This document shows, in pieces, positions 22,763 through 28,098 of a DNA stretch of 29,158 bases. Made by a program: the position numbers and the translations under genes. Location of the stretch: positions 1 through 29,158 of the forward strand of contig JAAFJK010000329.1 of the NCBI GenBank assembly GCA_013298105.1, written 5' to 3'. Each line of letters begins with the position of its first letter. The first letter of the stretch is position 1. Source of the stretch: Cytophagales bacterium (GTDB taxonomy: Bacteria; Bacteroidota; Bacteroidia; Cytophagales; Microscillaceae). A model generated the notes under the pieces. That model ran no database searches, had not been told where the DNA came from, and saw only the letters and a list, made by a program, of their open reading frames with translations.

Positions 22763-22810
22763 AAAAAACCTTGCCTACCCGCGTATCTGTGTGGGCAGGC
22801 AAGGTTTTTT
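22763..22810. terminator. Palindromic element AAAAAACCTTGCCTACCC-gcgtatctgtgt-GGGCAGGCAAGGTTTTTT. It is a bidirectional terminator between two minus-strand genes and is the opposite-orientation relative of the elements at 25384 and 28066
   Basis: 11-bp stems with A/T runs on both sides. Confidence 0.6.
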
Positions 22811-22811
22811 A

Positions 22812-25292
22812 CTAATCTTCGTCATCAGGCAATACGTTCGTATTCTGCAAAACATTGCCCAAAACAGTTCCTTTGAGCATATTCGAGAATACATCAGCCA
22901 CGCTCTTGCCTCCCAAGATAGCCAAAGGCGACATAGATTGGGCTACGCGCTCTGCGAGTGCTTTGTCTGCAAAGGCTTGCAAAGCCGATACGAGGTTGGG
23001 CGAAACGGCTTGCGCTTTGGCAACTACGGCATCTACTTCAGCTTTCATCTCAAGGAGATTTTGCTCAAGACGTTTTTGCTCAAGCGCGATGTCGAGTTCT
23101 TCTGTATCTTGCCTGCGTTTTAGTTCCGCATCATTGATTTTGGTTAGGTTATCTTGCTCAGTGAGTTGTGCGAGCAGGTAAGTTTCTTTGGTTTGGATTT
23201 CTGACTGGATACGCGCAAGTTGCAAATCAAGTTCTTTAGTAACTTCTTGTTGTTGGAGTTCAAAGCTACGTTGGCGCGTGGTAGATTGGGCTTGAGCAAT
23301 TTGTTGCAATACCAATTCACTTTCCTGCGTAAACTCAAGTTTGCGCCTTTCTGCGGATATTCTCAGGGCTTGTTTTACAATGTCTTGTTGTGAAGCTATC
23401 AGCAAGTTCTCTATCGCTACATCACTGAGGCGTATGTCAAGTATTTCTACATCATAGATGCGCATACCATTTTCAACAAATAATCTTCCTGCGCGTTTGC
23501 CATCTTCGGCGGGTTTGCCCAATATGGCATCTCTCAATATTTCTATGCCACTGCTGTAGAAATCATTGACAGAATATCTTTTTACGGCATTGCGTATGAA
23601 TGACCTCATGTGGTCTGTAAGAAACTCCACATAGTTTTCTACATTGAACCATTTTTCGGCTTCGCCTTCAAAGTTTACGCGGTAGGAAAGTTGTATGGCA
23701 ACTTTGGTGTAGTCGGCTGTTTCTGCAGAAACTATGTCCGATACTTTGTTATAGAGCGACCTTAGATAGACAGTCTTTAAGACGTTTTCGGCAGTTTTGG
23801 GCGTACCTGTAGAGAGTGTTACAGCCTCGAGATTTTCGTCATATTCGAGCAGGTAAGTTTGAGGACCTGTAACAACTTTGCGTGCGCCTGTTTTGCTTAC
23901 TACCAATATGGCATAGCCTGTCCAGATATTGATGGTTACGGCTCCGTCATATTTGGTATCAAGTGTGATGGTGCGTGGTGGCGTATAAGAGCTATCGCGC
24001 TCAAATTCATCACTGACCAATTTTTCAGATACTTTGTCTTTTTTGCGGGCATCACCTTTGCCTGCAAATTCTGCAACAGGCTTCGCTTCTTGCGCATTCA
24101 GTTCGGCATCAGAAACCCAATCTTGGCTCTCGCTTTTTAGGAGTTGTTGAAGTTTTTGATTGTAGGCAAGTGCCTCTTGATTGCCAGGAAACCAAAGTGC
24201 GACTTGTTTGGGGTGGAGTACACGCCTTACCAATACGGCTTCGCGTGGGTCGGGCAAAAACATAGCGGGTCCTTTTTGGAGGGAAACTTTGCCTGTTTTG
24301 CGATTCAAGTAATAACGTCCCTCGCCTGCGGGTATAGCTATAGAATAGTGTCGTTCTTTTTGTCCATATTTCACTATAGCGTGTTCGGGGCGCGGATAAT
24401 ATATCATTTGGTCTTTGCCAGTGATGAACAGCTCGTCCCCTTCTTTGTAAGATATTTTGTTTTCGGTATAGGGTGCTATGACTTTGATGTATAAGCCGCT
24501 CATTTCGTTCAGCTCGATGGCTTTGAATTTGCGCAAGCCGTTTCGATAGATAAATTCTTCGGTAGGTTTGGGGAAAACGACTGCTGGACCTTGTATAAAG
24601 CGTTTGTTGCCATCTTCATCAAGCAAAATACAATATTCTAAACGCTCAAGCGTAACGGCTTCGCGGACGTACTCATCTATGCCATCTTGTACGACTTCTA
24701 CGCCTGTGGGTGGGATATAAAACGATACGTGCGCTCCTGTGATGACGAGTGTACTGCCCATCGTGAGGTCGAGCGTTTCTTCTGTGATTTCAGTAGGTAC
24801 TTCTTCGCCTTCTGCTACAGTTTTGGCTTTGATGACGGCTTTAGTCCAATTTTTTTTGGCTTCGTCTTCGTCATAGACGCGCACGAGGAGGTACTGATTT
24901 GAGCGCAAATTATGTCCTCTCAGGACTTTTGCCATTTGTCCAGGCCAAAGCGAAAAATTGATAGGTCCAGGAATATTTACTTTCCTGCCTATATTTAGCT
25001 CTGCGAGGTTGTTGCTTGTGCCTGTTTTGGGTTGATGTCCATCTTTGGGTGGGTTTTTCATGACTACATACCAGCCTTCAGGGGCAGTAACAAAGGTACA
25101 CATAGATTCGTCGAGTGATACTCTGTCAAATCGTTTTGTATCGTTGTTGAATATCACAGGCTTGTCTGTATTGGCAAGGCTTGTCTTGTAAGGACCCACA
25201 TAGACGTTGATGTTGCCTTTAGTTTGGTCAGAAATGAAGGCGTATTCATTGGGGGCGAGTACGAGGTCGCGCTCTCTGTTTTCTTCAGCCAT
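22812..25292 (-). CDS. Major vault protein (MVP) homolog: N-terminal MVP repeats, an SPFH/band-7-like shoulder and a C-terminal coiled-coil cap helix
   Basis: N-terminus [27 protein letters not shown] aligns with eukaryotic MVP [39 protein letters not shown] aligns with MVP YVQDVKTGKVRAV. The C-terminal 300 aa are flotillin-like with a long Q/E/L-rich coiled coil. Confidence 0.7.
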   Translation of the reverse strand: [826 protein letters not shown]

Positions 25293-25383
25293 TTTGCAGT
25301 TTGTTTAGGTTTTGTGGTTAAATATACTACAAAAATCGTGCAATGCAAAAAACATGGCTGTTTTTTTTGTTTGGGGTGCATAT

Positions 25384-27399: not shown

Positions 27400-27995
27400 T
27401 GTATTGGCAAGCCTTTTATTGATGATGTAAGATTATTTAACTTTTCTTGAAGTATCATATCTTGTGTATGTTGTATTCTTTGGGCTTGTGCTGAAAGTTC
27501 TTTCTGCTCAAGTGCTGATAGCCTACTTGAATTGATAGATTGATACATTTTTTGTTTTACATATTCTGAAGTAGGTGGAAGAATATAATGTACTTGTGTA
27601 GCATATTCTAATAAACTGCGTTGCACATATCGTGGCAATTCAGAAAAATATTTACCGTCAAACTCTGTAGGCAAAAAGTTCAAGTTTTGTAGATTGTAAG
27701 CATTATTTTTGACAAATTGCCCCAAAGCCTCTAATCGTTCCAAACCATCAATTATTGTCCATTCCCAATGATTTGATGATTGTAAGTCAAAGTAAAAAAA
27801 GGGTGTTGGGTGCTTGAGTATAAGAGATTCAATATATTGGCTCTTTGTGGTTGTATCCCAAACAGTTTTTTCTGAATACCATGCAGCGTTATTATTTCTG
27901 TATTGTTGCCTTATTTGGTTATGATTGAATTTGACAACAAGTTGTTCCAAAGAAATAACGTTGTATTTTATGTTAATTTTTGACAAATCTACCAT
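27396..27995 (-). CDS. DUF262 (ParB/GmrSD N-terminal domain)-like protein
   Basis: WTIIDGLERLEAL matches the DUF262 (I/V)DGQQRL signature. YIESLILKHPTPFFYF matches the upstream hydrophobic box. 199 aa with no DUF1524/HNH half. Confidence 0.55.
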   Translation of the reverse strand: MVDLSKINIKYNVISLEQLVVKFNHNQIRQQYRNNNAAWYSEKTVWDTTTKSQYIESLILKHPTPFFYFDLQSSNHWEWTIIDGLERLEALGQFVKNNAYNLQNLNFLPTEFDGKYFSELPRYVQRSLLEYATQVHYILPPTSEYVKQKMYQSINSSRLSALEQKELSAQAQRIQHTQDMILQEKLNNLTSSIKGLPIQ

Positions 27996-28065
27996 ACATT
28001 TACTTGGATTAGTTATGCAAAAGTATAATTATATAATCAAATTTGCAAATATAAAAATCAAAAAT

Positions 28066-28098
28066 CCTTGCCTGCCCACACAGCGCGGGCAGGCAAGG
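28066..28098. terminator. Perfect palindrome CCTTGCCTGCCCACACAGCGCGGGCAGGCAAGG flanked by A5 and T5. It is a bidirectional terminator and the right boundary of island 2
   Basis: Read from the sequence. Confidence 0.65.

Follow-up and report, generated by a model that had tools for sequence, protein, structure and literature searches.

The contig JAAFJK010000329.1 of the Cytophagales bacterium assembly GCA_013298105.1 (29,158 nucleotides, analyzed over its full length and hereafter called the window) contains three intergenic hairpins, HP1, HP2 and HP3, that share both their arms and a distinctive loop. The common ancestry of the three, as copies of one hairpin type, is well supported by their sequences, as is a function as RNA terminators made from an uptake-sequence-like word that recurs throughout the genome. 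We consider it somewhat probable (roughly 55%) that HP1-3 are word-pair intrinsic terminators that represent paralogous copies of one hairpin "allele" spread via cassette integration.

Three hairpins with a conserved loop

The hairpins occupy the following positions:

22769-22804, minus strand: HP1, CCTTGCCTACCC-GCGTATCTGTGT-GGGCAGGCAAGG; 7 nt past the stop codon of a gene encoding a major vault protein (MVP) shoulder domain
25383-25415, minus strand: HP2, TCTTGCCTACCC-ACACAGCGC-GGGCAGGCAAGG; 3 nt past the stop codon of an NsnC-like gene; left boundary of a low-GC segment, island 2
28066-28098, minus strand: HP3, CCTTGCCTGCCC-ACACAGCGC-GGGCAGGCAAGG; perfect word pair; 7 nt past the stop codon of a CBM6-like gene; right boundary of island 2, with the same loop as in HP2

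Each hairpin comprises 33-36 bases, with 12-nt arms (CCTTGCCTRCCC/GGGYAGGCAAGG) on both sides of the loop; when extended into its A6/T6 flanks, the HP1 palindrome covers 22763-22810. An earlier note on this DNA reported three copies sharing stems and loop, and its coordinates and sequences proved accurate: HP2 and HP3 are identical at 31 of 33 positions, including the entire 9-nt loop, and a 33-mer match with three or fewer mismatches was found in none of 100 shuffles of the window. The exact 9-mer ACACAGCGC occurs three times in the window, in the loops of HP2 and HP3 and at 28138; of the four convergent word pairs of the window that match perfectly, three have the conserved loop. The loop of HP1 corresponds to ACACAGCGC in reverse complement, enlarged by three inserted nucleotides (TAT); on the transcribed strand, the loops read ACACAGAUACGC in HP1 and GCGCUGUGU in HP2. 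The description of one copy as inverted holds for the reversed loop of HP1, but the plus-strand arm states of HP1 are the same as those of HP2 (A in the left arm and C in the right, producing an A·C mismatch in both), and the inversion need not extend to the whole element.

The sequences flanking HP1-3 are unrelated, with only A/T runs in common. No direct repeat indicative of a target-site duplication was found beside any of the three hairpins, and the A-run and T-run flanks merely lengthen the palindrome. Because the arms are the genome-wide word, they are by themselves no evidence of relatedness, which, judging from the sequences, rests on the shared loop.

The 11-mer ACACAGCGCGG, consisting of the HP3 loop and two arm bases (28078-28088), is found again 60 nt away, at 28138-28148, in the 3'-terminal part of the CBM6-like gene, and there encodes ..NRAVL..; a repeat this near is unexpected by chance. 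This second copy is an unlikely donor of the loop, given that an identical loop is found in another genome (see below).

The arms belong to a genome-wide word

With up to two mismatches, CCTTGCCTRCCC matches the window 49 times, compared with 2.55 matches expected. The underlying word, (a)cCTTGCCTRCC(c), is 10-12 nt long and shows an A/G dimorphism. Its core, CTTGCCTRC, is the most frequent 9-mer both in the window and in related loci from metagenome-assembled genomes (MAGs) and metagenomes, namely, RDXI01 ('Bacteroidetes bacterium PH2015_13D_43_10'), JAYTNK01 ('Cytophagales bacterium GFS_3895') and JGI contigs, designated below by L numbers. The 134 single copies across the clade define the consensus (a)cCTTGCCTRCC and contain no information beyond ~12 nt; none of them shows the loop, which rules out that the loop belongs to an extended form of the general word. 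The 12-nt arm lacks internal dyad symmetry, and a hairpin needs two inverted units.

The 50 word cores in the window are divided between the strands (26 on plus, 24 on minus), and such a split within one contig rules out a polar word of the FtsK-orienting polar sequence (KOPS) or Chi type. Open reading frames (ORFs) contain 39 of these cores (78%; the core at 29135 was counted to the truncated CBM6-like gene), with a reading-frame preference, and only paired copies are intergenic. Native DNA of the window has 2.1 word copies per kb; the two low-GC islands have none.

The word was also seen in L001-L049 (RDXI01, JAYTNK01), L054, L059 and L072-L077, at ~1-2 copies per kb. A sister lineage (L057 and L058) is without the word, with zero copies in 22 kb of L057. 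A literature search on the word sequence returned only primers and unrelated matches.

By analogy, the word resembles in its behavior the DNA uptake sequences (DUS) and uptake signal sequences (USS), and not repetitive extragenic palindromes (REP) or polar KOPS/Chi words, and we infer that it could serve as an uptake-type signal. The likeness extends to the inverted-repeat DUS/USS terminators (irDUS/irUSS, 'DUES') of Neisseriaceae and Pasteurellaceae: the arms are inverted, over-represented words (9-12-mers, here 10-12 nt) that occur at ~1-2 per kb on both strands, including coding sequences; most copies are intragenic with a frame bias; the pairs lie just downstream of the 3' ends of genes and are accompanied by T-runs; and islands gained by horizontal transfer are free of the word. 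The differences are that the host here belongs to Bacteroidota (Cytophagales near Microscillaceae); that the word is A/G dimorphic and its pairs favor G·U mismatches in the sense RNA; and that a subset of the hairpins has a conserved loop and brackets inserted cassettes. To our knowledge, no uptake sequence is known in Bacteroidota, and reports of uptake-sequence-like words combined with inverted-repeat terminators are limited to Neisseriaceae and Pasteurellaceae.

The window additionally contains a cluster of word copies:

1487..1570, plus strand: four alternating word copies downstream of the gene at 102-1490, with a loop/extension different from that of HP1-3

The extension CCCAAC is common to three arms of this cluster, and the fold of 1480-1540 reaches -43.6 kcal/mol. 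At 21767-21795, three overlapping tandem 9-nt cores (CTTGCCTAC CTTGCCTGC CTTGCCTGC) are located in frame within the TetR-family gene 21180-21866.

The hairpins as predicted terminators

All genes between 22079 and 29158 are carried by the minus strand, and the three hairpins start 3-7 nt after the stop codons, HP1 following the MVP-like gene, HP2 the NsnC-like gene, and HP3 the CBM6-like gene. The minus-strand RNA of HP1 folds with -31.1 kcal/mol (z-score -7.4) and is followed by the tail UUUUUUCUC, a U-tract; that of HP2 folds with -28.0 kcal/mol (z-score -5.2); and that of HP3, with -32.3 kcal/mol, 15 pairs and the tail AUUUUUGAUU, is the best-ranked terminator-like site (the z-scores of the HP1-3 folds span -5.2 to -7.4). 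In relatives, the corresponding position behind orthologs of the MVP-like gene is taken by terminator hairpins that are gene-specific and unrelated.

Word pairs were catalogued over 147 kb of clade DNA, and the strand of the wobble was scored at unmatched R/Y positions. An R/Y mismatch is present in 25 of the 37 catalogued word-pair hairpins. Where the gene upstream of a mismatched pair could be assigned, the mismatch was G·U, and not A·C, in the RNA of that gene in 12 of 13 cases (binomial p ~0.002; ~0.006 without duplicates), and selection therefore appears to act on the RNA. The arm mismatch of HP1 is also G·U on the minus, that is, transcribed, strand. The abundant mismatches may be a means of making the palindrome weaker in the DNA without loss of pairing in the RNA, and a G·U-biased arm mismatch could serve as a simple signature to tell RNA-level from DNA-level function of palindromes. 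Inverted-repeat DUES, too, are located mostly in terminators (10.1101/2025.10.24.684340).

The earlier note held that HP1-3 are copies and not independently evolved terminators. The shared loop bears out the lack of independence, but the position of the hairpins, the U-tracts of HP1 and HP3 and the G·U test indicate that they are terminators all the same; the choice between copies and terminators is a false dichotomy. An Rfam scan pointed to no known RNA family, with E-values at noise level only, and no tRNAs were found.

The conserved loop in a related genome

Allowing one arm mismatch, we identified 57 convergent word pairs in the clade DNA. Their loops are mostly unique or consist of short CCC-RCGY-GGG centers, and the ACACAGC-type loop forms two tight clusters only, one of three hairpins in the window and one of three hairpins on L032 (contig RDXI01000191 of another MAG):

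L032, 2609-2637: hairpin #1, gCCCTTGCCT-ACACAGCGC-AGGCAAGGGc, with a 9-mer loop identical to that of HP2 and HP3
L032, 3856-3880: hairpin #2, loop ACCACACAGC
L032, 4076-4105: hairpin #3, loop ACTACACAGCA

The chance of a 9-mer loop match among ~50 loops is roughly 0.003, and the genes adjacent to the hairpins are unrelated between the window and L032. We therefore regard the shared loop, as seen in these sequences, as a real family trait. The earlier note had named confinement to three loci as a point that would speak against a family of dispersed elements; the hairpins on L032 extend the type beyond these loci. Loop-specific scans yielded 0 matches in one metagenome search and 8 unrelated chance matches in another, and two viral scans returned unrelated matches only; with no true copies in any of these, the type appears to be rare or lineage-restricted.

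A different explanation of this distribution is that word-pair terminators arose independently and their loops were homogenized later by local gene conversion or replication template-switching, so that the bracketing of island 2 would be a by-product. Same-loop neighbors are indeed common in the clade, always within a few kb of each other (two each in L045, L075 and L001, three each in L032 and the window); the arms of the 1487-1570 cluster share an extension; and the flanks of HP1-3 are unrelated. However, homogenization does not account for a second genome having the very same 9-mer loop, and the pairs in L045 and L075 are plain segmental duplications with conserved flanks. Moreover, 12-nt arms are short as conversion substrates, and island 2, although recent and word-free, already has a perfect hairpin at its end. 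We consider this explanation unlikely.

Hairpins at the borders of inserted cassettes

The segment of the window delimited by HP1-3 includes the following features:

25416..28065, minus strand: island 2, comprising NsnA/B/C-like genes and a 70-nt AT-rich upstream region
27396-27995, minus strand: NsnA-like gene (PADLOC match)
26245-27399, minus strand: gene for an NsnB-like AAA_15/DUF3696 ATPase (PADLOC match)
25419-26240, minus strand: NsnC-like gene (PADLOC match)
22812..25292, minus strand: gene for an MVP shoulder/SPFH-like protein of 826 aa, between HP1 and HP2, with native GC
28106..29158, minus strand: 3' part of the CBM6-like gene, which runs off the contig end and is predicted to be terminated by HP3

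Island 2 (2.65 kb) has a GC content of 0.307, compared with ~0.42, and contains no word copies where 5.6 are expected (P=0.004); its closest NsnB homolog is just 54% identical. By these features, island 2 is probably a recent foreign import and a candidate anti-phage defense system. The earlier note placed it exactly between two copies of the element, and HP2 and HP3, which are direct copies, are indeed located within 0-3 nt of the step in GC and word density. The upstream region of the island has TAnnTTTG-type boxes, as read off the sequence, and the MVP-like gene starts 91 nt from HP2, with HP2 upstream. In an empty-site and synteny comparison for island 2, the neighbors of the MVP-like gene differed in every relative.

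Two contigs of the Logan collection, from sibling runs and both 100% identical to island 2, end inside the hairpins. L053 (SRR9948920) extends from window position 28096 to 25966 and ends within the distal arm of HP3, and L078 (SRR9948921) extends from 27016 to 25386 and ends within the distal arm of HP2; both break exactly where the following 31-mer would fall wholly in the hairpin. Logan graphs are built with k=31, each 31-mer being unique per accession (PMC12424806). The breaks hint at further copies of the hairpin or at an island-less allele or, alternatively, at a drop in coverage at a strong hairpin. They also bear on the possibility that a low-GC contig was chimerically joined to its present surroundings at short shared repeats during assembly: the window is a MAG contig, and the independent Logan contigs cross neither hairpin. 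Nevertheless, the contigs of the two runs join island DNA to 31 nt of the hairpin with 100% identity, which implies that the island resides in a genome of this type, and, at 33 bp, the repeats fall short of the k-mer and read lengths used for MAG assembly. An assembly artifact is, accordingly, extremely improbable.

On L032, the three ACACAGC-loop hairpins are embedded in a spacer of 1598 nt between ComM/YifB and SerS, in the order ComM-HP#3-AntA-like remnant-HP#2-AntA/T5orf172 gene-HP#1-SerS promoter. In L072-L074, where SerS is 86% identical, the ComM-SerS distance is 151 nt and includes no word-pair hairpin, which argues that the hairpin-punctuated block of L032 is an insertion. At the same hotspot, L075 and L076 (SerS 90%) carry other pRha/AntA/T5orf172 genes; downstream of two of these stand identical hairpins, whose loop is a different one and whose flanks are conserved. 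From these comparisons, the ComM-SerS spacer appears to be an insertion hotspot for phage-derived selfish genes. The possibility that the hairpin is an intrinsic part of AntA/pRha cassettes is ruled out by the paralogous cassettes of L075, which end in a hairpin with the loop GTTTT.

Genes with AntA/pRha (Bro-N-like) and T5orf172/MUG113 nuclease domains pile up around SerS in several relatives:

L032, 2653-3615: AntA/pRha/T5orf172 locus
L075, 110-1045: AntA/pRha/T5orf172 locus
L075, 2824-6143: AntA/pRha/T5orf172 locus

A search for other foreign cassettes flanked by copies, as proposed in the earlier note, gave a mixed picture: the L032 block, with its empty-site comparator, is such a case, but island 1, the other low-GC segment of the window, is bordered by unrelated hairpins. 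The available loci suggest that the link between the hairpin family and cassette boundaries is real.

In both genomes, n inserted units are accompanied by n+1 same-loop hairpins. The same arrangement would result if the hairpins served as attachment sites, in the manner of an integron attC cassette array, for a recombination system dedicated to single-stranded hairpins, with the word as the arm sequence; one and the same imperfect hairpin closes each co-directional unit, with HP1 and HP2 both showing the A·C mismatch. However, attC sites span 57-141 nt and have an R''/L''-L'/R' organization with the GTTRRRY core, whereas the hairpins are 33 nt long, have no R''/R' core sites, and are flanked by sequences (AAAAATC ... 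GTTTTTA) unlike this core. The window encodes no IntI-like or other integrase, and island 2 has its own promoter. We regard such a system as very unlikely.

Origin of the hairpin copies

With regard to how the copies were made, we tentatively favor duplication coupled to cassette integration at a hairpin. At the RNA level, the hairpin would stop or stabilize the upstream transcript and insulate the next promoter, and the allele with the loop ACACAG(ATA)CGC would mark each gene end in a co-directional row that holds the new DNA. A cassette would integrate at or beside a hairpin already in place and would end up flanked by one copy at either end, hence n+1 hairpins for n cassettes. The likeliest route would be att-like or Campbell-type recombination inside the 33-bp hairpin, or import of DNA with terminal hairpins; the loop of HP1 would later have flipped and gained 3 nt.

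Several observations weigh against this scenario. A pure terminator role leaves the conservation of the 9-nt loop at non-homologous loci of two genomes unexplained, and the n+1 pattern is equally expected if every gene in the row has a terminator and neighbors homogenize. HP2 has no U-tract and may terminate poorly. No recombinase is encoded in the window, and 33 bp is short for RecA-driven integration. The empty-site relative lacks any hairpin between ComM and SerS, and a pre-existing hairpin thus has to be assumed for the RDXI lineage. Finally, island 1 is not bracketed by word-pair conserved-loop hairpins.

The model of the earlier note was a dispersed element similar to REP and bacterial interspersed mosaic elements (BIME). 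Worked out further, this model is a mobile or dispersed miniature palindrome resembling REPINs or palindrome-associated transposable elements (PATEs) and multiplied in trans by an enzyme specific for the hairpin, the gene of which lies elsewhere (HUH Y1 or a REP-associated tyrosine transposase (RAYT), an IS110/Piv-like enzyme, or another recombinase), with the copies serving as landing pads or ends of cassettes. Such mobility would account for the same loop at non-homologous loci of two genomes, for the occurrence of both loop orientations, and for cargo bracketed by direct copies, as by IS200/IS605 ends; the k=31 breaks of L053 and L078 fit identical copies elsewhere, and the 1487-1570 cluster is alternating in a BIME-like manner. 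As in REP/BIME/REPIN-RAYT systems, the palindromes are short, multi-copy and intergenic, occur in either orientation and, in some cases, in alternating clusters, and are a proposed insertion hotspot. However, the repeat unit here is a non-palindromic 10-12-mer that forms a general, mostly intragenic word (39 of 50 copies in ORFs), the hairpins occupy fixed terminator positions, and the conserved-loop type is restricted to the two tight clusters in the ~147 kb of clade DNA, with no true copies in the two metagenome and two viral scans. Scans with Pfam, NCBIfam and PADLOC detected no RAYT, IS200/IS605, integrase or other transposase among the window ORFs, so that the association with IS200/IS605 or RAYT transposases put forward in the earlier note finds no counterpart among the window proteins. 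The hairpins are accompanied by no target-site duplication, conserved flank or cleavage motif, and the G·U bias indicates selection at the RNA level. Overall, we consider a mobile palindrome unlikely, if the least unlikely of the alternatives.

Comparison with other families of repeats leads in the same direction. Like IS200/IS605 ends and PATEs, the two ends of island 2 have similar hairpins in direct orientation, but the window encodes no TnpA or TnpB, and no conserved cleavage or target tetranucleotide is present beside the hairpins, which directly adjoin stop codons and have a host-wide word as their arms. Miniature inverted-repeat transposable elements (MITEs) differ by the target-site duplication that is missing at HP1-3. 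On the defining features tested here, membership in the REP/BIME-RAYT, IS200/IS605, integron attC and MITE classes fails, as far as can be judged from sequence. The dRS3 repeats and Neisseria intergenic mosaic elements (NIME), as well as the minimal mobile elements, of Neisseria are characterized by short inverted repeats with a variable center that bound accessory segments between conserved genes; the corresponding conserved pairs here are ComM/SerS and CBM6-like/MVP. The sequences are nevertheless unrelated, no Piv/IS110-type recombinase or filamentous prophage was seen, and exchange by transformation is only something that we infer.

A more far-reaching and, in our view, quite doubtful proposal is that the word truly serves this Bacteroidota lineage as a signal for DNA uptake or self-recognition, which would constitute a third DUS/USS-like system independent of the others, and that the conserved-loop hairpins double as portable recombination sites for accessory cassettes (defense systems, AntA/T5orf172 selfish genes) exchanged between conserved genes. 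The DUS/USS-like architecture in an uncultured member of Cytophagales offers a concrete starting point for testing whether DNA exchange in Bacteroidota is biased by sequence. Shared with DUS/USS are how densely the word occurs, its even distribution over the strands, its frame bias, its absence from foreign islands, and the use of paired copies as terminators; identical hairpins at the borders of freshly inserted cassettes, seen here in two genomes, have not been described for DUS/USS. The conserved-loop hairpins could also show how defense islands enter between housekeeping genes without a visible integrase.

Other features of the window

The 826-aa protein encoded between HP1 and HP2 contains major-vault-protein shoulder and Vault_3 domains; its homologs (60-90% identity) are found in Microscillaceae, Bernardetiaceae and candidate Riflebacteria, each time in a different gene neighborhood. 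Exact-protein look-ups for four window proteins returned no match, and a PorG-like match among the window proteins is weak, below the cutoff. A gene on the minus strand at 22079-22729, whose start is 40 nt downstream of HP1, encodes a stand-alone PD-(D/E)XK nuclease-like protein of 216 aa (PADLOC PD_DExK, E 1e-14; no Pfam or NCBIfam match). A second NsnB/NsnC-like candidate defense system, at 16418-19827, has native GC and carries the word; the NsnB/NsnC-like system at 25419-27995 has a GC content of 0.31 and is without the word, which points to the latter as a recent import.

Island 1 is delimited as follows:

9700-13960: island 1, GC 0.28-0.33 (0.308 overall), no word copies

Its borders are a near-perfect palindrome with 25-nt arms (9782-9832) and a non-word terminator (13968-14004). 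One of its genes encodes a 905-aa fusion of an HTH_17/excisionase-like domain and N6/N4 methyltransferase domains, with a weak PglX-like match.

A 149-bp direct repeat (4179-4327 and 5690-5838; 98% identical) flanks an adenylate-cyclase gene at 4377-5648. Each repeat holds a 73-bp palindrome (AGCCACGCTGTAAGCGTCTGTT-N29-AACAGACGCTTACAGCGTGGCT), the core of which is also found in the JAYTNK loci L017 (989-1010) and L045 (3180-3201), as part of a MITE-like unit whose terminal inverted repeats read GGTTCTTCGAAAGTT. This 149-bp repeat is a better REP/MITE candidate than HP1-3.

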